Shown here: positions 21,476 through 45,937 of the stretch, piece by piece | How positions within the stretch are numbered: position 1 is the first letter of the stretch | How the letters are laid out: the number at the start of each line of letters is the position of its first letter | DNA from: an uncultured virus (IMG/VR IMGVR_UViG_3300042569_001723) | Taxonomy: Duplodnaviria > Heunggongvirae > Uroviricota > Caudoviricetes | DNA: 64,000 bases | Reading direction: 5' to 3' (one strand) | Virus record (IMG/VR): IMGVR_UViG_3300042569_001723 | Coordinates: 1 to 64,000 of that record | Position numbers and translations under genes: made by a program | Notes under the pieces: model-generated | Seen by the model: only the letters and a program-made list of their open reading frames with translations | Told to the model about the DNA's origin: nothing | The model's database searches: none

Positions 21476-22171
21476 ATGAATACATTATATACATTTGGAT
21501 GTAGTTTTACCGCTTACTATAATAATCATGAAAACTATATTAAATACAAAAAATATAAGCAAGGTAAATTCCCAAGTCATTGGACTGAATTATTATCAAA
21601 TAAGTTAAAATTAAAATTGAAGAATTTTGGATATTCAGGAATGGGGAATGACCAAATATTTCAATTGATTGCAAATAATTCTAATTCTTATGTACCTGAT
21701 GATATAATAGTTGTGGGTTGGTCTTTTACAAATAGATTTAAATGGGCAAATGATAATTTAAATGTGTGGGAAAGGATTGGTCCCGGATTTAAAGATAATA
21801 GTATGTTTATATCCGAATCAACAAAAAATGAAATAATGGTTAATAGAAGTAGTCCATTGTATATTAATGATATTAGAAATTATGAAAAATTATTGGACTT
21901 ATTTGCAAATAAATCTCAAATCAAAATATACTATTGGTCATTTGATTCAAATGTAATAAATAATAAGACAGAAAAAAATAATAATTTTATTTTATATTCA
22001 CAATTAAAGGATAACAATAGTCTTAAGGATTACATATTTGAATGTGGAGGTGATGATATTACAATGGAAACTAATTCAGAAATTAACGACCATCACTTAG
22101 GCGAAAATGGTCATAAAATACAAAGCGAATTATTTTATGATTATATTACTAATAAACAAAAATTAATATAA
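21476..22171 (+). CDS. SGNH/GDSL-like protein
   Basis: FGCSF block I, NFGYSGMGN, terminal DHHL..GH. Confidence 0.65.
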   Translation: MNTLYTFGCSFTAYYNNHENYIKYKKYKQGKFPSHWTELLSNKLKLKLKNFGYSGMGNDQIFQLIANNSNSYVPDDIIVVGWSFTNRFKWANDNLNVWERIGPGFKDNSMFISESTKNEIMVNRSSPLYINDIRNYEKLLDLFANKSQIKIYYWSFDSNVINNKTEKNNNFILYSQLKDNNSLKDYIFECGGDDITMETNSEINDHHLGENGHKIQSELFYDYITNKQKLI

Positions 22172-22178
22172 AAATGAA

Positions 22179-22313
22179 ATGAAAGATAAAATTGTAATAG
22201 CGACCATATCATCAAACAGTCAATATTATTATGTGTGTGATAAAAATTTTTTTTTAAACGATTTAATAATTTTAAATAATAACAACCCAAAACTTACGGG
22301 TAAAATAATATAA
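22179..22313 (+). CDS. Small ORF (44 aa) or gene remnant ending KLTGKII
   Basis: Manual translation; fills the gap and ends 1 nt before the next ATG. Confidence 0.35.
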   Translation: MKDKIVIATISSNSQYYYVCDKNFFLNDLIILNNNNPKLTGKII

Positions 22314-22314
22314 T

Positions 22315-23697
22315 ATGCTAAACGAAGTATTTGATAAAACCAAAAACAAATTAAACGAGGTGGGATGTGGAATGTGTCTCGCAAAATGGACACAAGTAAC
22401 CTTACATCTCCAAATGGGACACACACATTCTTGTCACCATCCAAGTTCACATTTTATTCCATTATCGGAGTTAAAAAATAACCCATCCGCACTTCATAAC
22501 ACATTATTTAAAAAACAACAAAGAAAAACAATGTTGGATGGAGGTAGACCTCAAGAATGTGATTATTGTTGGAACATTGAGGATTCTTCAAACGCGTTTT
22601 CAGATAGAATTTATAAGTCATCAGAACCTTGGTCGGCACCATATTTAGATGAAATTAAATCATTGGGATGGAGAGAAAACTATAACCCCAAATATGTGGA
22701 GGTTGCATTTAGTAATCATTGTAATTTTAAATGTTCATATTGTGGACCATCATACTCTTCTCAATGGGTACAAGAAATTGACCAATTTGGACCATATAAG
22801 ACATCAACGTTATTTAATAACTATGATTATCTAAAAAACACAAATAGAATGCCAATCCCACATAGTCAAGAAAATCCATATGTGGATGCTTTTTGGAAAT
22901 GGTGGCCCGACTTATATAGAGATTTACATACATTTAGGATTACCGGCGGAGAACCTTTACTAAGTAAAGACACATTTAAAGTTTTAGATTATATCTTAGA
23001 ACAAGAGGAACCAAATAAAAATTTAAACTTATCACTAAACACTAATTTAGGAATACCAGATAAATTATTTAATAATTTTTTAGAAAAAATAAAAAGAATT
23101 ATTGATGAGGACCGAGTAAAGGATGTCATTTTATTTACAAGTGCAGATACATGGGGTCCTCAAGCGGAATATATTCGTAATGGTTTGGTGTTTAATCAAT
23201 GGTGGGATAGAATTAATATTTTATTAAAAGAAATTGAACCCTTAACCATTATCATTATGTCAACGTACAACGCATTATCGGTTCCAAATTATAAAGAGCT
23301 AATCAAAAATGTTGTAAAATTAAAAGAAGAATATCATAATCCATATCGATATTATGGATCTTCGATTATGTTGGATTCTTCGTATCTAAGATGGCCACAA
23401 CACCAAACGGTTAAAATATTGGGAAGTGAATGGAACCATGTTGTTAAAGAACAGGCTCAATTAATGGATTTTTATGAACAAACAAGAGTTGGTTTAGATG
23501 GATTTGGATTTACTGATATCGAAATCAATAAAGTTAATAGAATATATGATTGGATGTTAAACGATGAAAACGATAATAATCTATTGAATAATAGGAAAGA
23601 TTTCCGTATATTCGTTGATGAACACGATAAGAGAAGAGGAACCAACTTCATAAAAACATTTCCCGAATTTGAGGAATTTTATAATAAAATAAAATAA
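22315..23697 (+). CDS. Twitch/SPASM-domain radical SAM protein
   Basis: N-term CLAKW..SCHH..ECDYCW; CNFKCSYC; ITGGEP. Confidence 0.85.
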   Translation: MLNEVFDKTKNKLNEVGCGMCLAKWTQVTLHLQMGHTHSCHHPSSHFIPLSELKNNPSALHNTLFKKQQRKTMLDGGRPQECDYCWNIEDSSNAFSDRIYKSSEPWSAPYLDEIKSLGWRENYNPKYVEVAFSNHCNFKCSYCGPSYSSQWVQEIDQFGPYKTSTLFNNYDYLKNTNRMPIPHSQENPYVDAFWKWWPDLYRDLHTFRITGGEPLLSKDTFKVLDYILEQEEPNKNLNLSLNTNLGIPDKLFNNFLEKIKRIIDEDRVKDVILFTSADTWGPQAEYIRNGLVFNQWWDRINILLKEIEPLTIIIMSTYNALSVPNYKELIKNVVKLKEEYHNPYRYYGSSIMLDSSYLRWPQHQTVKILGSEWNHVVKEQAQLMDFYEQTRVGLDGFGFTDIEINKVNRIYDWMLNDENDNNLLNNRKDFRIFVDEHDKRRGTNFIKTFPEFEEFYNKIK

Positions 23698-24347
23698 TGA
23701 TTTTTAATAAAAGAGCGTATTTTATACCAGAACAAACAAAGAATCAAACAAATACAAAAACGTTTGATAGTCTTGAAAATGAATTCTCATTTTATGCCGA
23801 ATTCAAGTTAGATAAATTTGAAGAAGAGGAATCACTTATTATTGGTAGGTTAGGTCATCATATGGGAATTTTTGTTCAAAAACCAAACGTAGTTAAATTT
23901 ACTTGGTATACTGAACCTGACGTTTATAATGATATTTGGGTACCTGTTGATGATATACATAAACAAATGAAAATCCTCGTTTCTGTGTCTGATGTTGTTA
24001 AGTTATATGTAGATGGAGAACTAAAAGGGGAGAAAACAAAGGGTAATTTAAAATCATATAAGAATAAGAACATATACATCGGATCAATAAGTCCATATGG
24101 TGAAAGTAATCCGTGTTGGTTTAACGGTGAAATAAATAAAGTTTGCGTGTTTGATAAATCAATAGAAAACTTTGATGAAAATTCAAAAAGTTTATTTTTA
24201 AATTTTGATTTTAATAATAATTCAAAGTTTAAAACATTTGATTTAAGTAACAATGGTAATCATGGAATTTATGTTGAGAATCCAGAATATGTTGCACATT
24301 CAATAAATGAATTTAATAAAATAGCTCCAGGAGCTAGAATTATATAA
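23697..24347 (+). CDS. Stand-alone LamG-like domain protein
   Basis: KLYVDGEL, IYIGS, FNGEI, DLSNNGNHG. Confidence 0.65.
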   Translation: MIFNKRAYFIPEQTKNQTNTKTFDSLENEFSFYAEFKLDKFEEEESLIIGRLGHHMGIFVQKPNVVKFTWYTEPDVYNDIWVPVDDIHKQMKILVSVSDVVKLYVDGELKGEKTKGNLKSYKNKNIYIGSISPYGESNPCWFNGEINKVCVFDKSIENFDENSKSLFLNFDFNNNSKFKTFDLSNNGNHGIYVENPEYVAHSINEFNKIAPGARII

Positions 24348-24348
24348 T

Positions 24349-25911
24349 ATGGGAATATTCGCTAAAAAAGGAGATGAAACCTATCAACAATACAGAGATA
24401 GGGCAATTAATTCTGTATCTCCAGCATTTTGTGGTGCTAAATGGTATAATGCAACTATTTGGTTGGGTAATGGGACGACAGCTAGTTGTCATCATCCACC
24501 GGCACATAAAATTCCATTGGAGGAAGTAGCAACAAGTTACAAAGCACTTCATAACACAAGTTATAAGAAACTAATACGTAAGCAGATGCTTGAGGGTGAA
24601 AGACCTAAAGAGTGTGAATATTGTTGGAAAATTGAAGATTTGGGTTCTGATAAAGTTTCTGATAGAGTTTATAAATCAGTAATATATACAGATCAAGAAT
24701 TAAAAGATGCAAAATCTAAGTTTGGGTGGGAAGAAGATGTTGATTTAAAAACATTAGAAATTGCTTTCGACCCAAATTGTAATTTTGGTTGTTCATATTG
24801 TAATGCATCATTTTCAACAACATGGCAAAATGATATAAAGAAAAATGGACCATACCAAAACTTAGTAAGTGATGGTGCCGCAGCATTCCAACACGATGGT
24901 GGTCATTCTATGCCTTATGGTAAAAAGAACGAAGGGAATCCATATGTTGAAGCGTTTTGGAAATGGTGGGAAGGTGAATTACAACATAGTTTACGTGAAT
25001 TACGTGTAACAGGCGGAGAACCAACAATGTCACAAGATTTTTGGAAATTAATGAAGTGGTGGGAAACACATAAAGAATGTGAAGTTGAATTTGCTGTAAA
25101 CTCTAATTTAGGACAAAAGGACGAATTATTGAATGAGTTGATTAAATCAAGTCACAATATTAAGTCGTTTCATTTATATACTTCATGTGAAGCAACTGGA
25201 TTACAGGCGGAATATATTCGATACAATTTAGTTTGGGAAAAATGGTTATCAAACATGTATAGAGTTTGCGAAGAGGGTAATATTAAATCTTTAAATGTAA
25301 TGATGACAATAAATGCGTTATGTTTATTTTCATTAACAGAATTCATGGACGAAGTTATTAAAATGAAACAAAAATTCGGGGACCATTTCCCAATATGTTC
25401 ATTTAACATATTACGTTTTCCAAGTTTTCAATCTATTGTTACATTACCTCACGATATCAGAATGGAGAGAGCTTCTCATATTGAAAAATGGTTGGAGAAT
25501 AACGTAAAGAATTTATTGGAAATGGAAAGAGATGGAATTTTAAGACTAATCACATATATTAGAGAAATAGAAACAGGACATAGTCATACATCGTCAATTG
25601 AAACAAGAGAAAGGGATTGGAAATCATTCTATATGCAATATGATATTAGAAGAAATAAAGATTTTATTGCTGCTTTCCCAATGTTAAAAGAATGGTGGGA
25701 TACCATTCCCGAAACTAAATTAGAACCGATTATTTTAGGTACCGTTGATGGAGACGATGCAAAATCTAATAGATACGTTAACGAAGTGTTAGAGACCGCC
25801 AAAAAAGAAGGTTGGGTTCTTAATCCACAAAATGCCAATCCAGGATCACAAGAGTATGTTGAGTTAGATATCCAAGACGAGATGTTAAATTTTATTAAAA
25901 ATGAAGAATAA
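24349..25911 (+). CDS. Twitch/SPASM-domain radical SAM protein (paralogue of 22315)
   Basis: CGAKW..SCHHP..ECEYCW; CNFGCSYC; VTGGEP. Confidence 0.85.
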   Translation: MGIFAKKGDETYQQYRDRAINSVSPAFCGAKWYNATIWLGNGTTASCHHPPAHKIPLEEVATSYKALHNTSYKKLIRKQMLEGERPKECEYCWKIEDLGSDKVSDRVYKSVIYTDQELKDAKSKFGWEEDVDLKTLEIAFDPNCNFGCSYCNASFSTTWQNDIKKNGPYQNLVSDGAAAFQHDGGHSMPYGKKNEGNPYVEAFWKWWEGELQHSLRELRVTGGEPTMSQDFWKLMKWWETHKECEVEFAVNSNLGQKDELLNELIKSSHNIKSFHLYTSCEATGLQAEYIRYNLVWEKWLSNMYRVCEEGNIKSLNVMMTINALCLFSLTEFMDEVIKMKQKFGDHFPICSFNILRFPSFQSIVTLPHDIRMERASHIEKWLENNVKNLLEMERDGILRLITYIREIETGHSHTSSIETRERDWKSFYMQYDIRRNKDFIAAFPMLKEWWDTIPETKLEPIILGTVDGDDAKSNRYVNEVLETAKKEGWVLNPQNANPGSQEYVELDIQDEMLNFIKNEE

Positions 25912-26812
25912 AAAAGTATTACTAACTTGTGGGGATAGTTTTACATTCGGCAGTGAAATTGTAAATCCAGAATTTTTATTAGAACCAACTGTACCTAATA
26001 AACAGGTTCAATATAATGGGAAAATAAAACACTGTTATGATACCAAAAATGACGATTATAGGTTGCAAAGAATATGGCCAACATATTTGGGTGAGATGTT
26101 GGGTGTAGGTAAAGTTATTAACATTGCTAAACCAGCAGTCGGTAATAGATGGATTAAAAATACAACAATCGGTTGGTTATTGGAAAATTATATTTCACAA
26201 AAAAAATCAACTGAGGAATTGTTATTAATAGTTGGTTGGACTACCACTGTTAGAAGAGAGTTTTTTTTTAATGAAGACAATAAGATTATTGAGGCAACAT
26301 TAAACTCACATGGTGATTTTAATTTGCAAAGTAAAAACCTTCAAAATTTTTTTAAGGAGTATCTATTGAGTATACATAATGAATACGAAGGTGTGTATGA
26401 TTTTATCAATTTAAATTTTGAGTTAATCGAATTTTGTGAAAAATACAAAATAAAATATCTTTGTTTCAATGCACTACCAAATGACCATATTCTAAAAAAG
26501 GTAGAGACTTATTTTGAAGATTTAAATATTGATGAATATATTAATAAATTTAATTATATTAATCCACTATGGGGTAGAAATTTACAAAATGAATGTAAAA
26601 TAAAATGGGATATGGTAACAAAATCAACATTTTTATTTAAAGATGAGAGATTAAATTCTTTTAGAAATTATATTATGAAATTACCATTACAAGATAGACT
26701 TTTTGGTACTCACCCTTCCCCCAAATCACATAAAGTTTGGGCAGACTTACTATATGGATGGATTGTTAACAATAAAGTTGAGTTTAAAGATATATTTAAA
26801 AAATTAGTATAA
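25901..26812 (+). CDS. SGNH/GDSL-like protein
   Basis: GDSFTFG, NIAKPAVGN, IVGWT, terminal HPSPKSHKVWA. Confidence 0.65.
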   Translation: MKNKKVLLTCGDSFTFGSEIVNPEFLLEPTVPNKQVQYNGKIKHCYDTKNDDYRLQRIWPTYLGEMLGVGKVINIAKPAVGNRWIKNTTIGWLLENYISQKKSTEELLLIVGWTTTVRREFFFNEDNKIIEATLNSHGDFNLQSKNLQNFFKEYLLSIHNEYEGVYDFINLNFELIEFCEKYKIKYLCFNALPNDHILKKVETYFEDLNIDEYINKFNYINPLWGRNLQNECKIKWDMVTKSTFLFKDERLNSFRNYIMKLPLQDRLFGTHPSPKSHKVWADLLYGWIVNNKVEFKDIFKKLV

Positions 26813-28560
26813 TGAGAATCGCTGTTTGTTTTTCTGGCCAAATGAGAACCGCATTAGAAGCTCATACATCTATTATGCGATTTTTAGGTAATCAATTACC
26901 CAATGTGGATTTTTTCTTCCACACATGGGACATTAAATCAGAAAAAAAACTATTTGGTGATTTAAGAGATGAAACGCATTATACCGACCAACAGTATGAA
27001 TCTATAAATAAATTATTAAAAATTGTTAAAGTATATGAACCTAAAAAGTATGTGGTTGAAAATTTCAGCAGTTTTAAAAACGAAAAAAATAATCCAGCAT
27101 TATGGTATTCTTGGTATAAATCTTTAAAGTTAGTTAGAGATTTTGAAAAAGAAAATGGGTTTAAATATGATGTAGTTATTAAAATGAGGTTTGATGTAAT
27201 TTATAAACCTGATATGGTTTTAGATGATTTATTTGTAAAATATTTAAGTAGAATCGAAAGCGGAGAGTTTTTTGCTGACTCAATATGGAAATTAGATGAA
27301 GAAATAAATCAAGATATGATACATGATGTTTTTTATATTCATAACTCCAAAATCATTGATAAATTAAATCTTTTTTATACCTATCATATTTCGAAAATAA
27401 CAGAAGAAGAAAATTACCATAGAATTTTTGGAACATTTTTAAAAAATCAAGGAATACCTTTTGATGAATGCTTGCCTGAAAAAGATAAAATTTGGTCTCC
27501 ATTACGAGAAATGTCATTAAATTTTTTTGATGCTAATAGTGATTTCAATAAAATAGTGGAATGTAATAGAATTTTATATAACCACGACTACCAATATTTA
27601 GAAGATGTTCGTCATATTGACTATGATACTTTACATATGTTAAAAGAATACACATTAAAACATATGAATTTCGCACCTAACGTTCTCGGTAATCTTAAAC
27701 CATTGAAAATAGCCATTTGTATGAGTGGACAAATTAGAACATGGGATAAGTGTTATCAGAATGTGTTTAAAATAATAAAAAAATTAAAAAGAACTGGATC
27801 AAATATTGATTTTTTCTGTCATAGTTGGGATTTTGATAGTAATTCACATCCAATTTTAGTTAATACTGGTAAAGATAAAATAATTCCATACGATGTGAAG
27901 ATACTTAATCAAATATTATCAATCTATGAACCTAAAGACCATTTGTTTGAAAATTATGAAAAAAATAAACAAGTGGTTGAATCCATTAAAAAAGAGGGTT
28001 ATAAGTATAAAAATAAAACACCAATAACTTGGAGCTCTCAACAATTTTATTCGTTAATGCGGGCTGCTGAAATGAAAAGAAAATATGAAATTGATAATGG
28101 ATTTGAATATGATGTTTGTATTAGATTGAGATATGACCAATATATACAAGAAACCGATATTGATTATATTATTAGTATGATTTTAAATGTGAAACCAAAT
28201 TGTGTTTTAACTATGCACAATCGGCCACATACAACGTATCCTTTTACAGTCTATGGGGATGTTTTTTGGATTTGTAATTCTTTAACTTATGATAAAATCG
28301 CATCTTTTTACCGAGCGTTACCAACCATTGATAGTAACCTGTTTACCGAAGGTATGGATACGCCTCCTGAAAATGTTTTAACTCATTATATTAACGATTT
28401 AAATATTAAAAACAAAGAAATGTTCATTGATTCGAGAATATGTAAAACTAAAGATTCTATTCAAAAGAAATTAGACTTAGGGTTACCGGGATTGGGTAAT
28501 AATGAAATTTTTTATGAAGATATTATTAATGATAACCAAATTAAATGCAAAATAATATGA
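26812..28560 (+). CDS. Protein with two tandem copies of a putative glycosyltransferase domain
   Basis: IAVCFSGQMR...DFFFHTWD...YDVVIKMRFD repeated as IAICMSGQIR...DFFCHSWD...YDVCIRLRYD. Confidence 0.6.
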   Translation: MRIAVCFSGQMRTALEAHTSIMRFLGNQLPNVDFFFHTWDIKSEKKLFGDLRDETHYTDQQYESINKLLKIVKVYEPKKYVVENFSSFKNEKNNPALWYSWYKSLKLVRDFEKENGFKYDVVIKMRFDVIYKPDMVLDDLFVKYLSRIESGEFFADSIWKLDEEINQDMIHDVFYIHNSKIIDKLNLFYTYHISKITEEENYHRIFGTFLKNQGIPFDECLPEKDKIWSPLREMSLNFFDANSDFNKIVECNRILYNHDYQYLEDVRHIDYDTLHMLKEYTLKHMNFAPNVLGNLKPLKIAICMSGQIRTWDKCYQNVFKIIKKLKRTGSNIDFFCHSWDFDSNSHPILVNTGKDKIIPYDVKILNQILSIYEPKDHLFENYEKNKQVVESIKKEGYKYKNKTPITWSSQQFYSLMRAAEMKRKYEIDNGFEYDVCIRLRYDQYIQETDIDYIISMILNVKPNCVLTMHNRPHTTYPFTVYGDVFWICNSLTYDKIASFYRALPTIDSNLFTEGMDTPPENVLTHYINDLNIKNKEMFIDSRICKTKDSIQKKLDLGLPGLGNNEIFYEDIINDNQIKCKII

Positions 28561-29213
28561 AAAATTTATGGACATTTGGATGTTCATTCACACATGGTGA
28601 CGGGACATTGGTAGATGATTTATATAGACAAAAATATAAAATTAGTGAAGATGACTTACCATGGACCCAACTACTATCCAATGAGTTAAATTTAAATTTA
28701 ATTAATAAAGGGTTAGGTGGATTGTCTAACGAATCTATTTTAGATTTACTAATTAATAATTGGGATTTTATTAATGCAGATGATATTGTGATTATTGGTA
28801 AAACATGGTCACATAGGTTTGACTTTCCTAAAAAAATTGGAAGTATTGAACCACAATCAATCGTATACCGAGGTGGAGAAAGTGATGTTAAAAAGTGGTT
28901 TGATGATTTAACAGTTGGAATTTTTAGCTATACTCAAATAGAATGTATAAAAACATTTTCTGTAGAATTTGCAACACAACCATTATATTCTAATAGACAT
29001 GATAATCGTTTTAATTTTATTAAAAATAGATTAATAAAAGATAAAAAAGTTAAAATTTGTTATATATGGGATGTTGAAAAATTATGGAATAAATATGATT
29101 TGATTGTTAATGCAACTAATAATGAAATAATAGACCATCATTGGTCATATAAAGGACATAATAATTTTTTTAAAGATATCTTAAACATAATACAAACACC
29201 AAAATTAATATGA
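28545..29213 (+). CDS. SGNH/GDSL-like protein
   Basis: FGCSFTHG, NKGLGGLSN, DHHWSYKGH; true start may be the second Met. Confidence 0.65.
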   Translation: MQNNMKNLWTFGCSFTHGDGTLVDDLYRQKYKISEDDLPWTQLLSNELNLNLINKGLGGLSNESILDLLINNWDFINADDIVIIGKTWSHRFDFPKKIGSIEPQSIVYRGGESDVKKWFDDLTVGIFSYTQIECIKTFSVEFATQPLYSNRHDNRFNFIKNRLIKDKKVKICYIWDVEKLWNKYDLIVNATNNEIIDHHWSYKGHNNFFKDILNIIQTPKLI

Positions 29214-29905: not shown

Positions 29906-29907
29906 AC

Positions 29908-33204: not shown

Positions 33205-34141
33205 AGTTAGATATTTTATATGCCCCATGTCAAAAAACATAGTAGATAGTGTTATTGAAATGAATTCACCATTGATTGGTCTTTTACCTAGTCGAAGACA
33301 GGTTGAGTTTAATGGCGGGTATGTGAATAATTGGACAACTGAAGAATTTGTTAATTACATTAAAAATAAATCAAATATAGTTGTCGAAAGAGACCACGCT
33401 GGAATTGGACAGGGAGACGAGAATGAATATGATTCATATAAAATAGATTCTATGTTTATGGATATTATCCACATAGACCCATGGAAAAAATACTCTTTTT
33501 TTGAAGATGGTTTGTTAGAAACAATTAAAAATATTAATTACATATCAAATATAAATCCAAAAGTAAAATTTGAAATTGGAACCGAGGAATCAATTAGAAA
33601 ATTTAATTTTAAAGAAATTGTTGAATTAATACAAGAATTAAAGATGGAATTAAATTTGAATCAATTTGAAAATATACAATACATTTGTATTCAATCGGGA
33701 GTTGGATTAGATTTAATTAATAGGAAAAACACGGGAACATTTAACTTAGAAACATTAAGATTAATGATCGAAATATGTAGAAAGTTTAAAAAACAATCTA
33801 AGGAACATAATGGGGATTATCTTAGTAAAGAGGACATTCAAATTAGATTTGATAACGGATTAGATGCATTAAACATCGGTCCAGAAATTGCTCAAATAGA
33901 AACCGAAGTATATTTGAAACATATGAATGAAATTCAAATAAATGAGTTCTATCAAACATGTTTAGATTCAAAAAAATGGGTAAAATGGGTTAATGATAAT
34001 TTTGATGTTACAGATAAAGAAAAATTAATAATGGTATGTGGACATTATAATTTTAATAATTTACCGAATATTAAGATAGATAATGAAATGGTTAAAGAAA
34101 CCATAAAAAATAAACTAACAAATTTAATTAGTTACGTATAA
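33197..34141 (+). CDS. GatZ/KbaZ-like (tagatose-bisphosphate aldolase/epimerase family) TIM-barrel protein
   Basis: SRRQVE..GGY, RDHAG, IHIDP, EIGTEE, KEHNGDY, NIGPE. Confidence 0.65.
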   Translation: MCKVRYFICPMSKNIVDSVIEMNSPLIGLLPSRRQVEFNGGYVNNWTTEEFVNYIKNKSNIVVERDHAGIGQGDENEYDSYKIDSMFMDIIHIDPWKKYSFFEDGLLETIKNINYISNINPKVKFEIGTEESIRKFNFKEIVELIQELKMELNLNQFENIQYICIQSGVGLDLINRKNTGTFNLETLRLMIEICRKFKKQSKEHNGDYLSKEDIQIRFDNGLDALNIGPEIAQIETEVYLKHMNEIQINEFYQTCLDSKKWVKWVNDNFDVTDKEKLIMVCGHYNFNNLPNIKIDNEMVKETIKNKLTNLISYV

Positions 34142-34286
34142 TGAAAAAATTGTGGTTTTTTGGTGATTCATTTACAGACAATGATTTTAATAGGTTAAAG
34201 TTTAGAAAAGAGTACGACGACTATATAGTGAAATAGGGAATCATTTAATATCGGATTTATTATTTCACGAATTAAATAAACAATAA
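34141..34286 (+). pseudogene. Internally deleted SGNH-like gene remnant
   Basis: MKKLWFFGDSFTD...* (34141-34236) followed in another frame by an SGNH-type C-terminus GNHLISDLLFHELNKQ* (34236-34286). Confidence 0.65.
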
Positions 34287-36480: not shown

Positions 36481-36489
36481 AATGGTAAT

Positions 36490-37516: not shown

Positions 37517-37517
37517 G

Positions 37518-37524
37518 TATTTAT
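37518..37524 (+). promoter_or_regulatory. TATTTAT putative late-promoter motif
   Basis: In a 26-nt intergenic gap directly upstream of 37543. Confidence 0.5.
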
Positions 37525-37542
37525 ATATAAAATAAGGAAAAT

Positions 37543-39042
37543 ATGAGAACAGTATTAATAGGTTCGGACTTTATGTACGATCAGGATGGTAATTTAAAAC
37601 CCATCGAAATAAACACCGCAGTTGGTTGGGATAACGCATCCAAAGTTGAAGATGATGTGGATTGTTTGGATTTAACAAATTTATACCAATTTGTTACTGA
37701 TAATAATTTCCAAAATATACATTACGTTGGGGATATTCAATATTTTCATAAAACATTAGAAACACACTACACAGGAAGTTCCGTTACATATGAATACCAC
37801 GCAATTGGTGGTTTGTCGATTACTATCCCAGTTATAGAGGATAATGATGAAACATTAATTATCAGAAGTGCATATGATACAACTGCGTTGGTAGATGATA
37901 CCTATTGTAGAGATAAGGTTGAATTTATGAAACTTATCCAATCCCAATCGTTCGGTTCACAATTTGCTTACATAGATGAAAACAACACTTTAATTAATAC
38001 TATAACAACAATAACAGATAATGGTGTACACCCTAATTTTATTCTAAAATCAAGGTATCCTGGCTATGATAAAGAGGTTTATCCTAAATTTTATAAAGTA
38101 ACAACACAAGAAGAATTAGATGTGGTTTTAGAAAATGTTACATCTGAATATTTTTTAATGGAAAACTACTGTAACACCACTAATAGTTACGAAGGTCACA
38201 TAAAGGTAGTTAGAAGTTTAAACATATTATACCCACCGACGTTACAATCAATTCATATAGGACAATATACTAAATTAAATGAAAATATATTTTTTACTGA
38301 TGTAGAATATAACTCAGAAACTTATGAGATAAATTCAGAATATAGAGATAGTTATACAACTTCTGTAAATAGTAACTGGTTACCAAAACTGTTAGATACT
38401 GATTTAGTAGAAATGGCTGACGGCACATTTAAAACCGCATTAGATTTAAATGTTGATGATGTAATTAAAACAATTGATATACCAAATCCAAATGGCACAG
38501 ATAATGCATCCTATACCGCAAATTTTGGAATAACGTATGAAACATTACTAAGTGGTACAACATATTCAACAAACAAAATTAATGCATTAAAAAGAGTTAA
38601 TAAATTATCATATTTTTATCAATTAACTTTTGACGATAATAGTACTTGGGAGGATACGGGAGTTTCTTCGTATTTGATTGAAAGAAATAATGAAGTTCAA
38701 TTTGAAAATTTATTTGATGTGGTATCTGGAGATGCGGTTTTATTGTTAAACACAACGGATGGGTTAATGGATTTTGTTAGAAAAACAGTAGTATCTGTTA
38801 CACAAATTAAAAAAGTATTTACCGGTTGGTTTATTTCAGTAGAAAGAACACACTTATTTTTAACTAAGACCACATCAACAAATAACGAATCGTTTGTTTC
38901 GATTGAACATAATGGACCTAGTTGTCCAGTGGGATGTTGTTGGGGGGGCGCTTGTCCGACTTGTCCAAAAAACGAACCATATTGTTCCGGTCCATACGGT
39001 AACCCGACTTGTAATGCTTATCAAGGAATATGTTGGAGTTAA
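37543..39042 (+). CDS. Fusion of a circularly permuted ATP-grasp-like domain, a Hint (intein-like) domain and a C-terminal Cys-rich 42-aa peptide
   Basis: SDF..D..G.LKPIEINT, RDK, FILKSR, YFLMENY; Hint block A-like KLLDTDLVEMADGTFKTALDLNVDDVI (res 282); HLFLT...EHN (456-457) followed by GPSCPVGCCW... Confidence 0.7.
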   Translation: MRTVLIGSDFMYDQDGNLKPIEINTAVGWDNASKVEDDVDCLDLTNLYQFVTDNNFQNIHYVGDIQYFHKTLETHYTGSSVTYEYHAIGGLSITIPVIEDNDETLIIRSAYDTTALVDDTYCRDKVEFMKLIQSQSFGSQFAYIDENNTLINTITTITDNGVHPNFILKSRYPGYDKEVYPKFYKVTTQEELDVVLENVTSEYFLMENYCNTTNSYEGHIKVVRSLNILYPPTLQSIHIGQYTKLNENIFFTDVEYNSETYEINSEYRDSYTTSVNSNWLPKLLDTDLVEMADGTFKTALDLNVDDVIKTIDIPNPNGTDNASYTANFGITYETLLSGTTYSTNKINALKRVNKLSYFYQLTFDDNSTWEDTGVSSYLIERNNEVQFENLFDVVSGDAVLLLNTTDGLMDFVRKTVVSVTQIKKVFTGWFISVERTHLFLTKTTSTNNESFVSIEHNGPSCPVGCCWGGACPTCPKNEPYCSGPYGNPTCNAYQGICWS

Positions 39043-39067
39043 TAAAAATAATAAAAATTAAAATAAT

Positions 39068-39157
39068 ATGACAACTATAATAACAAACACAGAAATCAAC
39101 GTACTGAACACAACTTTAACTACCATTGGCAATTTAATTGTAACTGCAAATAGTTAA
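39068..39157 (+). CDS. 29-aa Thr/Asn/Ile-rich micro-ORF
   Basis: Manual translation MTTIITNTEINVLNTTLTTIGNLIVTANS; A-rich upstream context like neighbouring genes. Confidence 0.5.
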   Translation: MTTIITNTEINVLNTTLTTIGNLIVTANS

Positions 39158-39175
39158 TTCTAAAAATAATAGGTT

Positions 39176-39706
39176 ATGATTTACTTCATTCCAAATATTC
39201 TTTCAAAGGAGGAATGTGTATTTTTATCTAAACAATTTGATATTGAAAAGGTAAATAACTCTTCTAGTGATAAAATGGTAGAAACGAATGCTTCTTTTGG
39301 ATTTAGACCTTCATATAATTTTGATAAATATATGGAAAAATTAAAACCAAAAGTGTTAGAATTCAATAATGGAATTGAACATTTAGATAATGTGAACACA
39401 TATGTTAGGGAGTATTTCAATGGTGCATTTTTAACAAAACATATAGATAGAACAGATATAAGTGTAACAATTTCAATATGTTTAGAGTCAACAATAAACA
39501 AAGAATGGCCATTATTTGCTAAAATAGGTGGTGAAGAATACTCACATCACACAAATATAGGCGACGGAATATTATTATTTGATGCTGATAAAAACGTTCA
39601 TTGGAGAAATCCTTTAGAATGCGACGAAACCCAAAGAGTATTACAATTTTTTCTACATTGGATGCCGGTTAACTATATAACAAAAAAAACAAAATCATTA
39701 ATATAA
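39176..39706 (+). CDS. 2OG-Fe(II) oxygenase
   Basis: LTKHIDR (HxD), GDGILL, HWR, QFFLHW. Confidence 0.8.
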   Translation: MIYFIPNILSKEECVFLSKQFDIEKVNNSSSDKMVETNASFGFRPSYNFDKYMEKLKPKVLEFNNGIEHLDNVNTYVREYFNGAFLTKHIDRTDISVTISICLESTINKEWPLFAKIGGEEYSHHTNIGDGILLFDADKNVHWRNPLECDETQRVLQFFLHWMPVNYITKKTKSLI

Positions 39707-39712
39707 AAAGTT

Positions 39713-40285
39713 ATGTCGTTTACATATAAATCCGTATCAAATTTATTAACAAAAGAAGAATGTGATTTAGTTCTGAATTTCACATTAGAAAATTTAATAT
39801 TAAATCCTGCAAAAACCATTGGTTATGATTCCCCAACTTATGGTACCAGAAAATCAAATGTGGTATTTTATCCATATTATCAAAAATTTCCATTTATATT
39901 AGAAAAAATATCTAAATTATTAGATGAAAATATCACCATAAAAGGATTCGATTTAGATTACAAAAATAGTCAATTCCAATTCACAGAATATAAAGATGGT
40001 GATTTTTTTGTTTGGCATAAAGATATTACAGGAAAAGAAGTTACACAACACGAAAGATATTGTTCTTTAGTTATACAACTAAATGATGAATATGAAGAAG
40101 GTGATTTAGAATTAAAATTATCCGATGGTTCAATAATGAAAGTAGAAAAGGGAATAGGTAACACTATCGTTTTTTTATCTGATATCGATCATAGAGTAAC
40201 GGTAGTTAAAAATGGTAATAGATATACATTAGTTAATTGGGTTGCAATAAAAGAAAAAAGTAGTTATAAAAAAACACTCTTATAA
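39713..40285 (+). CDS. 2OG-Fe(II) oxygenase (prolyl-hydroxylase/PKHD-like)
   Basis: QFTEY..GDFFVWHKD, QLNDEYEEGDL, HRVTVV..GNRYTLVNW. Confidence 0.85.
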   Translation: MSFTYKSVSNLLTKEECDLVLNFTLENLILNPAKTIGYDSPTYGTRKSNVVFYPYYQKFPFILEKISKLLDENITIKGFDLDYKNSQFQFTEYKDGDFFVWHKDITGKEVTQHERYCSLVIQLNDEYEEGDLELKLSDGSIMKVEKGIGNTIVFLSDIDHRVTVVKNGNRYTLVNWVAIKEKSSYKKTLL

Positions 40286-40286
40286 T

Positions 40287-40589
40287 ATGATAGATCTCAA
40301 AGAAATTTCAATCGCGTGGTACAATACACTTATACACTCTAATGAATTAAAAAAATTGGCAGATGATAGGTTTGATATTTGTTTAGAATGCCCATCTAAA
40401 CAAGAATTTTTTAAAAATAAAAATAAAGAATGGTCATTAAAATGTGGAGAATGTGGTTGCCCATTAAAAGGTAAAGTATACACACCCAAAACATATTTAG
40501 ATAAAAAGGGATCGTGTCCGTTAGGAAAGTGGAAACAAGTTGAAGATGAATATTTAAAAGGGTTTAAATCAACTAAAACAATTATATAA
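40287..40589 (+). CDS. Small Cys-rich protein (CxxC, CxxCxC, CPxxKW), probably metal-binding
   Basis: RFDICLECP, CGECGCPL..K, CPLGKW. Confidence 0.65.
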   Translation: MIDLKEISIAWYNTLIHSNELKKLADDRFDICLECPSKQEFFKNKNKEWSLKCGECGCPLKGKVYTPKTYLDKKGSCPLGKWKQVEDEYLKGFKSTKTII

Positions 40590-40591
40590 AA

Positions 40592-41272
40592 ATGTCTCAT
40601 TTAATTAATAATGAACTCATTTGGGTTTCTATCCCAAAGTGTGCCAGTTATTCCATTGAACAATCATTAAGAAACTCAAAATTAAATTTAGAAATATTTG
40701 TACCAAATGACAAAACACGGCATTTTCACGTACCGGTGAATCAATGTTTAGAACGATGGGGGGATAAAGAAACTGTTTGTATAACACGTGATTGGTTATC
40801 TAGATGGTTAAGTGCCCTAAATTTTGTTTGGGATAATATAGAATTTGAAAGCGAATACACTGCTGTTCGTAAATGGGAGGATGTTGATAATGAATATATC
40901 TATAAAACATTTAATACCGATTTTTTAAATAAATTACATTTGTTGAGTAACGATCACGATGGATTTAGGAAGTGCTGGTTTAAACTAGTAAAAGAAAATT
41001 TTGAATGTGAATTACCGATTAGAGGTGCGGTTGACACTTTACTTTCCCAAAGATTTTTCAAATCTAATAAAAAATGTACCTACGAATTTGACATTAGTGA
41101 AATTGATAAATTTACAGATTTTATAGAAGATAGATTTGGAGAAACATTAATTATAAATCACACAAATAAAACATCCAAACGACCAAATAAGATAATTGTA
41201 AATGACGAATTAAAATCATTCATTTGGGAAAATTTTGAAAAGAGATTTGAAAAGGGAAATCATTTAATATAA
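40592..41272 (+). CDS. Sulfotransferase family 2-like protein
   Basis: WVSIPKCASYS 5'-PSB loop; RDWLSRWLS 3'-PB motif. Confidence 0.7.
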   Translation: MSHLINNELIWVSIPKCASYSIEQSLRNSKLNLEIFVPNDKTRHFHVPVNQCLERWGDKETVCITRDWLSRWLSALNFVWDNIEFESEYTAVRKWEDVDNEYIYKTFNTDFLNKLHLLSNDHDGFRKCWFKLVKENFECELPIRGAVDTLLSQRFFKSNKKCTYEFDISEIDKFTDFIEDRFGETLIINHTNKTSKRPNKIIVNDELKSFIWENFEKRFEKGNHLI

Positions 41273-42003
41273 TGTTAATAGATAAAAAATTTATTTTTAT
41301 AAGTTTACCAAGATGTGCTTCAACATCATTTATGATTACGTGTCTAAAAAACAAGATACCAGTAGAACATTTCAATTCAAACCTTGATAATCAGTTGATT
41401 AAAATAAATGAATGGGAAAAAATGAATAATGAAGAATTGGCGGATAGTTTAGTACACGCACATGAACCATTATATATATTACAAGAAAAATTTGGTATAA
41501 ACAATCAAATTATTTCAATAAGAAGAAACAATTATGATAGATTTTTATCTTTATGGAAACACATTATAGATGAATTATACAGAAAAAATAAATTTGATAT
41601 TGCTGATAAATTTTCAAAGTTAACAACTAATGATATGTTTGATAATATCACATCAAATGACATTTATAATTTGGAAAATAGGTCTAAAGTTATTGATAAT
41701 TTTTTAACTAAGTTAAAAATTTCAAAAAAAGAGTCCTATACTAAAAATATGTTAGATATATTATTTACACCAGTAGTTGAACTCACAAATAGTAATCCAA
41801 ATATTATTTGGTTTGATATTGATAATTTGGTGGAATTAGAAAATTGGGTATCAAAAAAATTAAATAAGGATTTTAAAATGGAAAAAATAAACTCAAGTAA
41901 ACAATTTGAGTGTGTAATAGAAATCAATGATAATTTTAAACAAAAATATGATAATCTTTATAAAGAGTTTGAACAAAGAAAAATAAATAAAACATTATTA
42001 TGA
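41272..42003 (+). CDS. Sulfotransferase family 2-like protein
   Basis: FISLPRCASTS; RNNYDRFLS; KINSS. Confidence 0.7.
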   Translation: MLIDKKFIFISLPRCASTSFMITCLKNKIPVEHFNSNLDNQLIKINEWEKMNNEELADSLVHAHEPLYILQEKFGINNQIISIRRNNYDRFLSLWKHIIDELYRKNKFDIADKFSKLTTNDMFDNITSNDIYNLENRSKVIDNFLTKLKISKKESYTKNMLDILFTPVVELTNSNPNIIWFDIDNLVELENWVSKKLNKDFKMEKINSSKQFECVIEINDNFKQKYDNLYKEFEQRKINKTLL

Positions 42004-42563
42004 AAAAAATAATTTTGAATGACACATATGGTTATGAAGAATTCATAACAAATGAAGAACAAGAAAATCTTTTATTTTGGACAAATTCTAATTCACATCT
42101 ATTTCAAATAAACACAACTAATAGTCATACCATAAATGCGCCATATGGTTCTAGACAAATCGGTGTATTAACAAAAATATTAAATTCACCATTAGATTTG
42201 GTAAAAAAAATAAAGGATAGGGTAATTGAAGTAGAAAAAATTAATGATTGGATATTAGACCCAATGTTTGAAGACGCAATTGGTATTAATAAAGAAGGGG
42301 GTTCAATTCATTTACATAGTGATTCAAATTTAGATGGATATACACATGTTAGATATAACATAATACTATCATATCCACATGAAGGCGGACACTCAATATA
42401 TAATGGTAAGATTAATGAGTTAAAAGAAAGAATGGTTTGGAGGTGTGTTGCTGGTAGGGTCGAACATGGCAGTATGCCGGTAATAGGAGAAAAACCAAGA
42501 ATAACTTTAACATTAGGATTTCAAATAAAGGATAAAGTAAAAAAAGAAAAAACTTTATTTTAA
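42000..42563 (+). CDS. 2OG-Fe(II) oxygenase
   Basis: GGSIHLHSD, EGG, EHGSMPV.G..PRITL. Confidence 0.75.
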   Translation: MKKIILNDTYGYEEFITNEEQENLLFWTNSNSHLFQINTTNSHTINAPYGSRQIGVLTKILNSPLDLVKKIKDRVIEVEKINDWILDPMFEDAIGINKEGGSIHLHSDSNLDGYTHVRYNIILSYPHEGGHSIYNGKINELKERMVWRCVAGRVEHGSMPVIGEKPRITLTLGFQIKDKVKKEKTLF

Positions 42564-43034
42564 ATGGAAATATATAAAAATCTTTTACCCAACGAATTTT
42601 GTGATAATTTAATAGATAAAATTAAGAATGAATGTGTTTTAAGTGAATCCCATAAAACAAACTGGTTTGTTTGGTTGATATGGGGTCAACAAGGTATTCA
42701 ACTACTAGAAAGAGAAAAGTGGAATGAAGAAATTTATAATACAGTTATAAATGAGTTGAGTAAAAATAATTTCCCTAATTACAAAACGATGTGGTTACAA
42801 ATGACCGAATATAAGGATGGTAGGTGGTTACGAAGACATGTAGATGGTGCAAAAAATAAAACATCAATAATTTTGTTATCCAATGGGTTTATAGGTGGAG
42901 ATACATATATAAATAATAAAGTTGTAAATTTAAAAAAGGGAGATGGTGTTGTATTTGATGGCGGTCATCAATATCACGAAGTAAAACCAGTTACAGAAGG
43001 AACACGATACGCATTAAATTTTTGGTTTCATTAA
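42564..43034 (+). CDS. 2OG-Fe(II) oxygenase
   Basis: RRHVD, GGDT, HEVKPVTEGTRYALNFW. Confidence 0.82.
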   Translation: MEIYKNLLPNEFCDNLIDKIKNECVLSESHKTNWFVWLIWGQQGIQLLEREKWNEEIYNTVINELSKNNFPNYKTMWLQMTEYKDGRWLRRHVDGAKNKTSIILLSNGFIGGDTYINNKVVNLKKGDGVVFDGGHQYHEVKPVTEGTRYALNFWFH

Positions 43035-43043
43035 TAATAAAAT

Positions 43044-44084
43044 ATGGTAGATTTAAAAAATTACATATGTGGTGTACCATTCAACTCATTGGAAATACAC
43101 AATAATCAATATTTTTTGTGTTGTCCATCTTGGTTAAATGTTTCATTTAAAAGAGATGAATATAAATTAAATGAAATATGGAATAGTGAACCTGTTCAAG
43201 AGATTAGAGAAAGTATGTTAGATGGTTCATTTAAGTATTGTAATAAAGAACTTTGTCCATTTTTAAGTAAATTAGTAAATTATGGGGTTGCAAATGGTCC
43301 AATTACTTTAAAATCAAATTCAAATATTAATAATACTATTATAGAAAATAACACTCCTGATATGTTAATGATGAACTTTGATAGAACTTGTAATTATAAA
43401 TGTCCATCTTGTAGGGTAGATTTAATTGTTGAAAACAGTAATGGAATTAAACGGATAGAGAAAACAATTGAAGAAATTGATACTCATTATTCTGCAAATG
43501 TGAAATCACTATATATAACAGGATCAGGAGACCCGTTTGTTTCGGTTGGGTTTAGAAATTATCTAAGAAATTTTAATCCTAAAAAATATCCAAAACTGCA
43601 ATCAATACATCTTCATACAAACGCATCAATGTGGAATAAAGAAATGTGGGATAGTATGCCAAATATACATAAATATGTTCATAGTTGTGAAATTAGTATA
43701 GATGCAGGTACAAAAGACACCTATGAAAATAAAACAAGAATAGGTGGTAATTGGGAAAATCTAATAAACAATTTAAAATTCATTAATACATTACCAATAA
43801 GTGTTAAAACTTCATTTGTGGTACAAGATACAAATTATACCGAAATGGAAACATTTTATAATTTAATGTATTCTATTTTTGGTAAGAAAGTAAATGTGTT
43901 TTTCGGTAAGATAACTAATTGGGGCACATTTTCAGAGGGCGAGTTTAAATTAAAACAAGTTTGGAATACAAATCATCCAGAACATGAATTATTTAAAAGA
44001 GAGTTTAATAAAGTGTGGAAAAACACAAATCTATTTCATAATCTATATGAGTTTATTGATACTACAAATAAAACGTTAATATGA
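43044..44084 (+). CDS. Twitch/SPASM-domain radical SAM protein
   Basis: CGVPF..LCCPSW..EIWNS..YC...CP; CNYKCPSC; GSGDPF; ISIDAG. Confidence 0.85.
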   Translation: MVDLKNYICGVPFNSLEIHNNQYFLCCPSWLNVSFKRDEYKLNEIWNSEPVQEIRESMLDGSFKYCNKELCPFLSKLVNYGVANGPITLKSNSNINNTIIENNTPDMLMMNFDRTCNYKCPSCRVDLIVENSNGIKRIEKTIEEIDTHYSANVKSLYITGSGDPFVSVGFRNYLRNFNPKKYPKLQSIHLHTNASMWNKEMWDSMPNIHKYVHSCEISIDAGTKDTYENKTRIGGNWENLINNLKFINTLPISVKTSFVVQDTNYTEMETFYNLMYSIFGKKVNVFFGKITNWGTFSEGEFKLKQVWNTNHPEHELFKREFNKVWKNTNLFHNLYEFIDTTNKTLI

Positions 44085-44623
44085 GAATTTTAATTATTGC
44101 ATTATCAAGAAGTGGTGGATATCAATTGAATGAATGGTTGTCTATGGAGCTAGAACATAAAATGATACATGAACCAATATACACAAATCAATCCATTGAA
44201 GGAAACAATATTGTGGTAAAATATAATATTAGTGAAATTGAAAATAGAATGGATATTGATTTAACAAATTGGGATAAGATAATTGGATTAACGCGTGAGG
44301 ATGCGAGAGAGTGTTCAATATCACATACCAAAGCAGTACAACGAAAGGAATGGAGAAATGGGTATGAAGTAAGTGATGAATGGATAAAAGAAAACGAAAT
44401 AGACATAAAATATTTTGAGGAATGGGTAAATAATACAATTGACTATTTTAATACAATAAAAGAAATTCAGTTAAAAGTTACATATGAAGGGATATACGAC
44501 ACCAAAGAGGATATACAAAGAATAAAAGATTATATTGGTTTAACAAGTACAAAGTATGAACACCTATTAGATAATACAAATAGGTTAAGAAATAGGAGGA
44601 AAACAAAAAGAAAATTTTTATAA
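44081..44623 (+). CDS. Sulfotransferase-like P-loop protein
   Basis: ILIIALSRSGG, HEP, LTRED..E..IS, VTYE. Confidence 0.6.
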   Translation: MRILIIALSRSGGYQLNEWLSMELEHKMIHEPIYTNQSIEGNNIVVKYNISEIENRMDIDLTNWDKIIGLTREDARECSISHTKAVQRKEWRNGYEVSDEWIKENEIDIKYFEEWVNNTIDYFNTIKEIQLKVTYEGIYDTKEDIQRIKDYIGLTSTKYEHLLDNTNRLRNRRKTKRKFL

Positions 44624-44633
44624 ATTAAGAAAA

Positions 44634-45134
44634 ATGATATTAAAAGAAAAAATCTTATTTAGTAAAGAGGAGTGTGAGTCCATTATATTAGAATCCAATC
44701 AACATATTACAAATTGGAGAATGGGGGATAGAAAATATAATTCACAACCAATTGATTATTCATTAGAAACCAATTGGTTATTTGATAAGTTGAAGGATTT
44801 TGTGGAAAGGGAAACAAACATTGAAATTAGAACAATAAAAAAAACGATACATTTGCATAAATTTACGAAAGGTGATTGGTTTGGAAAACACAATGATATT
44901 AGAGATAACAGATTATATGCGGTTGGTGTTTTATTAAATGATAACTTTGAAGGTGGTGATTTTACATTGTATAATCCAAATGAAATAATTTTAAATAAAA
45001 TTATTGGAAACACTTATATATTTGATGTAGGAATTGAGCATGAAATAGCACCAATTTTAGAAGGTGAACGATACTCATTACTTTGGTTTTTACAAAATGA
45101 ACATATAAAAACAGAAACAAATAAATTAATATGA
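44634..45134 (+). CDS. 2OG-Fe(II) oxygenase
   Basis: GDWFGKHND, LNDNFEGGDF, HEIAPILEGERYSL. Confidence 0.85.
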   Translation: MILKEKILFSKEECESIILESNQHITNWRMGDRKYNSQPIDYSLETNWLFDKLKDFVERETNIEIRTIKKTIHLHKFTKGDWFGKHNDIRDNRLYAVGVLLNDNFEGGDFTLYNPNEIILNKIIGNTYIFDVGIEHEIAPILEGERYSLLWFLQNEHIKTETNKLI

Positions 45135-45937
45135 ACCCATTAGAATATTGGAACCCGAAAGGATTTGAAATCTCATCTTACAAATATTCATTAAAAGAAA
45201 GAGTAAATCAGACATATACAACTTCCGGTGGAGATAATACAGGACTATGTACCTACACCTATAATGAATTAGGATTTAGAGGTGATAGTATAAAAAAAGA
45301 AGGTTTTAAAGTTATGTCATTAGGTTGTTCAATTACGGAAGGAGTCGGTGTCAATGATAATGAAACTTGGCCGGCACAATTTTGTAACCATATTGAAAAT
45401 GGGGTAAATTTAAACTTTGGAACAGGAGGAAGAAGTAACGATTTTATATGTAGATGTTTAATGAGTTACTATGATTTAATTAAACCAGATTTGGTATTAA
45501 TAATGTATACAAATACATTTAGAAGAGAATTATATACTAAAGATGGGGGAATAGAACCCTTTATGCCCACATTATCTTGGGGATATTTGAAAGAAACAGA
45601 TGATGGTGTTAAAACACAAGAATATTTAACTTATTTACAAAATGATAATGAAGATTTTATAAATTGGTACAAAAATCATTTATTAATAAAGCATTTTTTA
45701 GAATCTAAAAAATGTAATTGGATATGGAATGGTTTTTTCCACATACCAAAAGATTATAATGAATTTAACAGATTCGATGGTGATTACGGAAGACCTTTTT
45801 TGGATTATGGAGTTGATGACATACATCCAGGACCAAACCATAATAAAACCTATTCATATAAATTACACAATTTTATAACTAAAAACTTCTCAAGTTATTT
45901 GAATGATTTATCAAAAATTAAACAAAATTTAATTTGA
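45131..45937 (+). CDS. SGNH/GDSL-like protein
   Basis: NELGFRG, LGCSITEGVG, NFGTGGRSN, DDIHPG. Confidence 0.7.
   Translation: MNPLEYWNPKGFEISSYKYSLKERVNQTYTTSGGDNTGLCTYTYNELGFRGDSIKKEGFKVMSLGCSITEGVGVNDNETWPAQFCNHIENGVNLNFGTGGRSNDFICRCLMSYYDLIKPDLVLIMYTNTFRRELYTKDGGIEPFMPTLSWGYLKETDDGVKTQEYLTYLQNDNEDFINWYKNHLLIKHFLESKKCNWIWNGFFHIPKDYNEFNRFDGDYGRPFLDYGVDDIHPGPNHNKTYSYKLHNFITKNFSSYLNDLSKIKQNLI

Follow-up and report, generated by a model that had tools for sequence, protein, structure and literature searches.

The stretch of DNA analysed here (hereafter the window) comprises the first 64 kb of a 77.8-kb contig from an uncultured virus (IMG/VR record IMGVR_UViG_3300042569_001723; CheckV completeness 23%). 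It contains a low-G+C island at positions 16170-52090 (26-32% G+C) with about 39 genes, flanked by two giant collagen-like fibre genes of 40-45% G+C, which encode proteins of 2230 and 2585 amino acids (aa), respectively. The island encodes GT7+LamG glycosyltransferases, methyltransferases, three radical SAM enzymes and 2-oxoglutarate (2OG)-Fe(II) oxygenases, together with a carbamoyltransferase, an APS kinase, and large GT4/FkbM and methyltransferase (MT)/GT9 fusions. The subject of this report is a short C-terminal tail, basic and then hydrophobic, shared by the products of 16 island genes. Open reading frames (ORFs) were called with a longest-ORF routine and no gene finder, and genes are designated by their first coordinate (Table 1).

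The tail-bearing radical SAM gene is identical in the window contig and in a 97.6-kb IMG/VR contig (L001). A complete relative of 335,630 bp (G001) has Pfam matches to Gp23 capsid, Gp20 portal, gp19 tube, sheath and terminase proteins, which identify it as a T4-like jumbo phage; the closest cultured portal proteins are those of Microcystis phage Mel-JY01 (41% identity) and of the Flavobacterium 'immuto' phages (36%). A DNA search with positions 39000-46000 found no close relatives among cultured phages. Record G002, labelled as a provirus, shows no G+C shift at its ends.

A first-pass annotation, made from the sequence alone, had quoted 16 C-termini as instances of a common tail, and all of them were confirmed at the genes concerned. 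Ten of the 11 genes at 39176-45937 carry it, the sole exception being the oxygenase gene 42564, whose product ends at the last strand of the fold (..RYALNFWFH) while, in the alignment, its four paralogues run 11-15 residues further into the tail. The accompanying observations, that 32 nt separate the stop of gene 45131 from the next ATG and that the tail is missing from the GT7 genes, the carbamoyltransferase and the APS kinase, also held true. For counting, the tail was defined as [LIVF][LIVF]-stop with K/R at positions -3 to -6. The proposed enrichment check showed it to be commoner in the island (16 of 39 genes) than elsewhere on the contig (3 of 41 other ORFs; Fisher p = 5e-4), and the same pattern occupies 2.7% of internal 6-residue segments of the island proteins. 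In a composition-matched null, built from same-strand stop triplets of the island that lie out of frame, a hydrophobic dyad precedes 297 of 2812 such stops (10.6%), compared with 16 of the 39 genuine ones (binomial p = 8e-7); between 39 and 46 kb the corresponding values are 58/575 and 10/12. In G001 the tail was found in 15 of 43 island ORFs and in 19 of 381 elsewhere (p = 5e-8, with Met counted as hydrophobic). The clear tails outside its island belong to four SGNH-like proteins and to two proteins with an RSGG N-terminal motif, that is, to the same kinds of enzyme, so that the tag follows enzyme class and not location. In Mel-JY01, the nearest cultured relative found, dyad ends occur at background rate (13/246) and are unclustered.

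The first-pass annotation had itself cautioned that the A/T-rich initiation context of the next gene could generate such C-termini, in which case coupled genes throughout would show the motif at equal frequency, or its conservation would be one of nucleotides and not of amino acids; both were looked for, and neither was found. The caveat was a serious one because start contexts in the contig are almost pure A/T, often ..TAAT-ATG, and an ATGA overlap ends five of the 16 window tails. ORFs surrounding the radical SAM gene in 79 related viral loci were called and assigned to the window genes by BLASTP. The radical SAM orthologues (53-100% identity), which are followed by many different genes, end in K/T-T/S-L/I-I/M at all 77 loci with a readable end, with Thr encoded by ACA, ACT, ACC or ACG, Leu by TTA, TTG or CTA, Ile by ATA, ATT or ATC, and all three stop codons in use. 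Across 11 tail families, the terminal dyad is present in 200 of 209 distinct tail sequences and is encoded by 35 codon pairs. Relative to the consensus of each family, the last four codons show 169, 79 and 229 differences at codon positions 1, 2 and 3, respectively, which comprise 129 synonymous, 78 hydrophobic-to-hydrophobic and 142 other changes. Codons containing G or C are often used for Thr, Ser and Leu, so a constraint to A/T alone fails to account for the pattern; such a constraint would also allow any order of residues, whereas the order K, T/S, L, I is fixed.

Nor does the dyad depend on the gene junction, being present in 227 of 237 distinct contexts of tail families against 18 of 178 contexts of other families in the same loci. 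In the tail families it was found at 46/49 ATGA overlaps, 36/38 TAATG overlaps and 71/71 junctions with an ATG 0-3 nt away, as well as at 26/27, 17/17 and 31/35 junctions with the ATG at 4-11 nt, at >=12 nt, or with none within 30 nt, respectively (48/52 for the last two classes together). The values for the other families, in the same order, are 9/43, 1/25, 1/27, 0/24, 3/35 and 4/24. The dyad is thus somewhat commoner at their ATGA overlaps (9/43) than at their other junctions (9/135), and A/T-rich start contexts may have supplied the sequence from which tails first emerged. The carbamoyltransferase, 36921, DUF2061, 37543, 45970, 48687 and oxygenase 42564 families stay tail-less across orthologues, except for a few carbamoyltransferase orthologues ending in ..KIL. 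In particular, 11 distinct orthologue termini of 42564 (75-100% identity, 25 ORFs) likewise read NFWFH or NFWFY[KR], and its remoter paralogues (35-45% identity) do carry the tail. With a dyad independent of the junction and 35 codon pairs in use, the caveat is refuted.

The tag has the consensus K-[T/S]-L-I-COOH, preceded by a Lys-rich linker. In the family-weighted logo, position -4 is K (0.53) or N (0.19), -3 is T (0.37), S (0.22) or K (0.17), -2 is L (0.69) or I (0.21), and -1 is I (0.72) or L (0.17). The information content amounts to 2.3-2.4 bits at -1/-2 and 1.4-1.5 bits at -3/-4 and fades by -8, by about which position the Lys enrichment is also gone; acidic residues are nearly missing from the last four positions. 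Linkers differ in length and sequence between orthologues. Thus, in the alignment of 40287, indels of 0-8 residues precede the conserved K-T-hydrophobic-hydrophobic end, and in the DUF6071 gene 25901 the dyad ends 23 of 27 homologues (31-97% identity; protein search) on a wholly diverged linker, a pattern scan for related viral loci of this gene having found none. The best 120 homologues of 39713 (56-99% identity) all end in K/N/Q-T/S-hydrophobic-hydrophobic, and paralogues of 21476 in related loci (27-38% identity) end in KPSLV, KLTLI, KPELI and TKTLI. The orthologues of 45131 are more varied (KQNLI, ESKLI, ERKLI, KKALI, PKSLI, NQKLF), with the dyad in 25 of 33 distinct tails, the remaining eight being shorter and dyad-less, most ending just after ..NFPNY or ..PDYL. 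In the structural model of oxygenase 39713 (predicted local distance difference test, pLDDT, 90.8) residue 181 is the last of the fold, and residues 182-190 form a coil (mean pLDDT 68 in block 181-190), so that in this one model the tail is predicted to be flexible.

Among representatives of 50%-identity clusters of the 2OG family, the tag was found in 25/25 of ranks 1-25 and 14/25 of ranks 26-50, and a dyad end in 17/100 of ranks 51-150, the remote representatives mostly terminating in ..RYSLVxWVxGPPFR. In 337 cultured-phage records, the match to 39713 stops at residues 176-180 of 190 in the 25 rows listed. Its absence from distant and cultured-phage homologues marks the tail as a lineage-specific appendage. 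Overall, unrelated tailoring enzymes share a short linear motif at the C-terminus that is lineage-specific and kept by selection. The claim of an appended C-terminal peptide signal, and not a side effect of gene coupling, therefore stands on amino-acid conservation with synonymous turnover, junction independence, absence from distant homologues and predicted flexibility. The functions offered with it (recruitment to a scaffold, an assembly site or the capsid, or degradation) are hypothetical, and nothing in the analysis points to capsid targeting.

Table 1. Tail-bearing genes of the window, the tail-less control and neighbouring features (dyad, two terminal hydrophobic residues, counted over distinct orthologue tails).
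Product	Coordinates	Strand	C-terminus	Remarks
Putative SGNH-like protein	21476..22171	+	..NKQKLI	N-terminus MNTLYTFGCSF
44-aa ORF	22179..22313	+	..LTGKII	without homologue evidence for a real gene
Laminin_G_3 (ConA-like) protein	23697..24347	+	..PGARII	
DUF6071 protein	25901..26812	+	..IFKKLV	
DUF7796 protein	26812..28560	+	..IKCKII	
SGNH-like protein	28545..29213	+	..QTPKLI	
2OG-oxygenase-like paralogue	39176..39706	+	..KTKSLI	dyad in 9/9
2OG-Fe(II) oxygenase	39713..40285	+	..YKKTLL	
100-aa Cys-rich (zinc-ribbon-like) protein	40287..40589	+	..STKTII	dyad in 28/29
226-aa protein without assigned family	40592..41272	+	..KGNHLI	dyad in 19/19
243-aa protein without assigned family	41272..42003	+	..INKTLL	dyad in 13/13
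2OG-oxygenase-like paralogue	42000..42563	+	..KEKTLF	
2OG-Fe(II) oxygenase	42564..43034	+	..LNFWFH	no tail (internal control)
Radical SAM enzyme	43044..44084	+	..TNKTLI	
180-aa protein	44081..44623	+	..TKRKFL	N-terminus MRILIIALSRSGG
2OG-Fe(II) oxygenase	44634..45134	+	..ETNKLI	dyad in 31/31
268-aa protein (weak DUF6071/GDSL likeness)	45131..45937	+	..IKQNLI	followed by 32 nt of non-coding DNA
Tail-less conserved protein, candidate reader	37543..39042	+		directly upstream of the 39176-45937 array
Tiny ORF, 29 aa	39068..39157	+	..TANS	between gene 37543 and the array
Giant fibre gene	5949-12641			collagen-like minor-tail/tail-fibre PHROG matches
Giant fibre gene	53229-60986			collagen-like minor-tail/tail-fibre PHROG matches
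Proteins ending in R-F-G-[L/I/V]	12643-14076, 61035-61730, 61742-62560			PHROG virion-protein matches only

Several of these gene assignments can be qualified. The product of 21476 appears to be SGNH-like, judging from its N-terminal block and from G001 paralogues that match Lipase_GDSL; the Pfam scan gave no match for the product itself. Gene 28545 probably starts at 28557 (MKNLWTFGCSF), because its N-terminus then matches that of paralogue 21476 and the ATG falls in an ATGA overlap with the stop codon of 26812. A P-loop or sulfotransferase-like nature of the 44081 product is conjectural, as a lenient Pfam scan of the tail proteins without assigned family, 44081 included, gave nothing usable. 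Elsewhere in the island, a 31-aa ORF at 34141-34236 (+), starting MKKLWFFGDSFTDN, resembles a truncated SGNH hydrolase N-terminus and probably represents the remnant of a gene, lying between 33197 and 34288.

With regard to the fibres, the presence of P4H-like oxygenases and GT7/GT25-type transferases beside them suggests that these collagen-like proteins may be hydroxylated and glycosylated; the G001 fibres match Pfam Collagen. A second common C-terminal motif, R-F-G-[L/I/V] (KARFGL, GRFGI, ARFGV), is found on proteins encoded directly after the giant fibre genes. At positions 245428-249964 of G001, four of seven adjoining ORFs end in RFGL and one in RYGR, and four of those five have a Laminin_G_3 match.

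The best explanation for the tail, advanced here tentatively, is that of a docking (recruitment) tag for one shared partner. Flexible Lys/Asn/Thr-rich linkers of 11-15 residues were appended to the folded cores of unrelated small tailoring enzymes, among them 2OG oxygenases, radical SAM, SGNH-like, Zn-ribbon-like and LamG proteins and several without assigned family, and end in K-[T/S]-[L/I]-[I/L] with a free carboxylate. This free C-terminal peptide would be read by one common protein partner, and tailoring enzymes that can stand in for one another would in this way be gathered on a common platform or substrate of the island. We infer free-C-terminus reading by one partner from the position of the conserved part, exactly at the chain end on a flexible linker. 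The candidate reader would be the ATP-grasp-like/Hint/Cys-rich protein 37543, which heads the array together with its tiny partner ORF. That K-T-L-I-COOH acts as an address label, plugging swappable enzymes into one reader, maybe this protein and the tiny ORF, is a doubtful proposal.

Protein 37543 consists of an ATP-grasp-like domain (residues 1-276), a Hint/intein-like domain (278-459) and a disordered Cys-rich end (459-499; model pLDDT 81.5). Its N-terminal domain resembles circularly permuted ATP-grasp ligases of the glutathione synthetase/YgiC/GspS type, with borderline structural matches (VIA Z 8.3 with 5oeu, root-mean-square deviation (rmsd) 5.2, 212 aligned; Z 8.3 with 7uka). Further ATP-grasp signals are weak (biotin carboxylase profile at only E 3; Atlas lead score 0.77), and E22, N24 and T25 are invariant in the alignment, which bears on the question of an Mg-binding E-x-N. 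The Hint domain matches many inteins and bacterial intein-like (BIL) domains (Foldseek E 1e-7, probability 1.00; VIA Z 14.9, rmsd 3.0, 145 aligned) and has an invariant H456-N457; as the consensus has Lys where inteins have Cys-1, splicing is not implied, and C-terminal cleavage releasing the Cys-rich peptide seems likelier. That peptide of about 40 residues has conserved Cys, four of which are invariant in the alignment. Homologues of 37543 were found in all eight tail-lineage records searched and in neither of two cultured tail-less relatives. In all 35 loci examined, a small ORF lies 11-63 nt after the stop codon of the 37543 homologue and is of one of two types, either 24-29 aa with ..IG.LI...NS or 36-49 aa starting MAKVEK.. 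or MAQKER... The spacer at 37517-37542, between the DUF2061 gene and 37543, opens with GTATTTATATA, conserved in many related loci, and may hold the promoter for the array of tail genes.

ATP-grasp ligases of the glutathione synthetase, GspS and TTL types act on peptide C-terminal carboxylates. Protein 37543 is a lead because this class acts on such groups and the tails conserve a free C-terminus; in the bolder version of the address-label proposal, its ATP-grasp domain would act chemically on the free C-terminal carboxylate of the enzymes. A complex prediction for residues 1-280 with the 100-aa tail protein 40287, run without controls, gave a score of 0.02 (mark 0.32) and weighs neither way. 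Several points tell against a docking tag read by this protein. PDZ, TPR and S41 domains, looked for as readers, were not found in G001, and hydrophobic C-termini after basic residues also typify known bacterial degrons. The ATP-grasp assignment is borderline, with no Pfam match above threshold and RimK in 2 of 37 members at E 0.085; moreover, this domain might just as well act on the Cys-rich end of the same protein or on the tiny peptide. The form of the tail is unchanged where the 37543 protein falls to 25-29% identity, with no co-varying 'dialect'. Six of the 16 window tail genes lie 10-17 kb from 37543, and in G001 some tail genes are 250 kb away from the island. Finally, any lineage-specific gene would co-occur with the tail as 37543 does.

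An alternative, which we regard as possible but unlikely, is that the tail would be a degron read by an AAA+ protease, either host ClpXP, ClpAP or Lon or a phage Clp machine, and would keep the tailoring enzymes short-lived or confined to a time window of infection. It remains the main rival on account of the likeness to the MuA signal RRKKAI-COOH, one of two classes of C-terminal ClpX signals, which likewise has basic followed by non-polar residues at the exact C-terminus and is found on a phage protein (PMC8138137, PMC5143411, PMC7857536). The tails are K-rich at -4 to -7 with L/I at -2/-1, and 16 of 16 have K/R within -3 to -6; a flexible linker of 11-15 residues would be within reach of an unfoldase pore. 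G001 also has genes for a full-length ClpP (E 3.5e-57) and for a ClpC-like, double-AAA+ ATPase of 670 aa that lacks an N-domain, and ClpP is likewise present in G002, G004 and G005. However, ClpP is also present in the tail-less Mel-JY01, and a Pfam AAA_2 search did not find the ClpC-like gene in the partial records G002, G004 and G005. There is no clear reason why about 40% of one enzyme island, plus the same classes elsewhere, should be unstable while the glycosyltransferases and one oxygenase paralogue are spared, and the preference for K at -4 and T/S at -3 is without counterpart among the quoted degrons. As a separate observation, G001 loci L086:7705-9717, L092:8530-9207, L087:3155-3346, L086:9814-10230 and L098:9818-10550 belong to a set of genes for ClpP and the ClpC-like ATPase lacking an N-domain, for Hsp20, NusG and ribosomal protein bS21, for a factor resembling sigma-70, and for Fe-S assembly proteins of the IscU and IscA kind.

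It is improbable that the polybasic and hydrophobic end would serve as a weak membrane-targeting sequence, directing the enzymes to lipid-linked glycan intermediates. The tail is indeed Lys-rich and then hydrophobic, and the island is rich in glycan enzymes, but just two hydrophobic residues are conserved, and their conservation is bound to the exact chain end (200/209), which membrane helices do not require. MinD/FtsA-type membrane sequences serve as the comparison here; the one available model predicts a coil and not a helix, and the glycosyltransferases, though needing the same access, are without the tail. Least credible of all is that the tail is what the next gene's initiation context of A/T only (TAAT-ATG, ATGA overlaps) spells in the upstream frame, a candidate rejected on the dyad counts across junctions (227/237) and the 35 codon pairs.

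If the tail is an address label, it provides a portable rule consisting of four terminal residues on a flexible linker, by which widespread uncultured giant phages would order an exchangeable set of tailoring enzymes that includes hydroxylases, radical SAM enzymes and esterase-like proteins. Knowing the reader would reveal the target of the island's modification, be it the fibres, the Cys-rich peptide or the host surface. The tag might serve as a minimal recruiting or destabilising tag for bacterial proteins, and as an annotation marker it flags members of the system anywhere in the genome, including proteins of no known family.

The literature searches made, on phage C-terminal tags, degrons and ATP-grasp/Hint proteins, gave no description of such a tag. 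Compared with the MuA class, the phage tail has a more defined K-[T/S]-L-I core and is borne by a whole enzyme class, whereas MuA-type signals are borne by single regulators. The recognition tripeptide of the CIA (cytosolic iron-sulfur assembly) targeting complex, [LIM]-[DES]-[WF]-COO-, on eukaryotic cytosolic Fe-S clients, is also a very short free C-terminal peptide that recruits unrelated clients to one machine (PMC10245660). The likeness is in working principle only: the CIA tag is eukaryotic, acidic/aromatic and tied to Fe-S insertion, whereas the phage tail is basic/aliphatic, comes from a bacterial phage and has no acidic or aromatic residue in its logo, and most of its carriers (SGNH-like, 2OG oxygenases, LamG) are not Fe-S proteins.

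Two further comparisons concern docking proper. Class I PDZ-binding motifs have the form x-[S/T]-x-hydrophobic-COOH, and the tails share with them a free carboxylate, a hydrophobic last residue and, in many cases, T/S at -3 (family-weighted 59%). Unlike class I ligands, however, the tails have a conserved Leu at -2, which is untypical, and only six of the 16 window tails have S/T at P-2. A phage-encoded PDZ or S41 reader was looked for and not found, PDZ_2, PDZ_6 and Peptidase_S41 giving no match, at E<=1 or <=0.01, in G000, G001 or G002, and none in Pfam scans of 395 G001 ORFs (six giant ORFs left out); the reader could be host-encoded. Two large G001 proteins have weak Cohesin-domain matches (~24 bits, at the cut-off). 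In systems of ribosomally synthesised and post-translationally modified peptides (RiPPs), with their leaders and RiPP recognition elements (RREs), and with the docking domains of tailoring enzymes acting in trans, varied tailoring enzymes are brought to one substrate or platform by a common recognition element. The phage array is RiPP-like in that a tiny ORF and a protein whose end is a Cys-rich peptide stand at its head, and differs in that no RRE is present and the enzymes, not the substrate, bear the tag. Read as an address label, the tail would thus be the inverse of the leader/RRE logic, with the enzymes carrying the recognition element and the substrate platform reading it.

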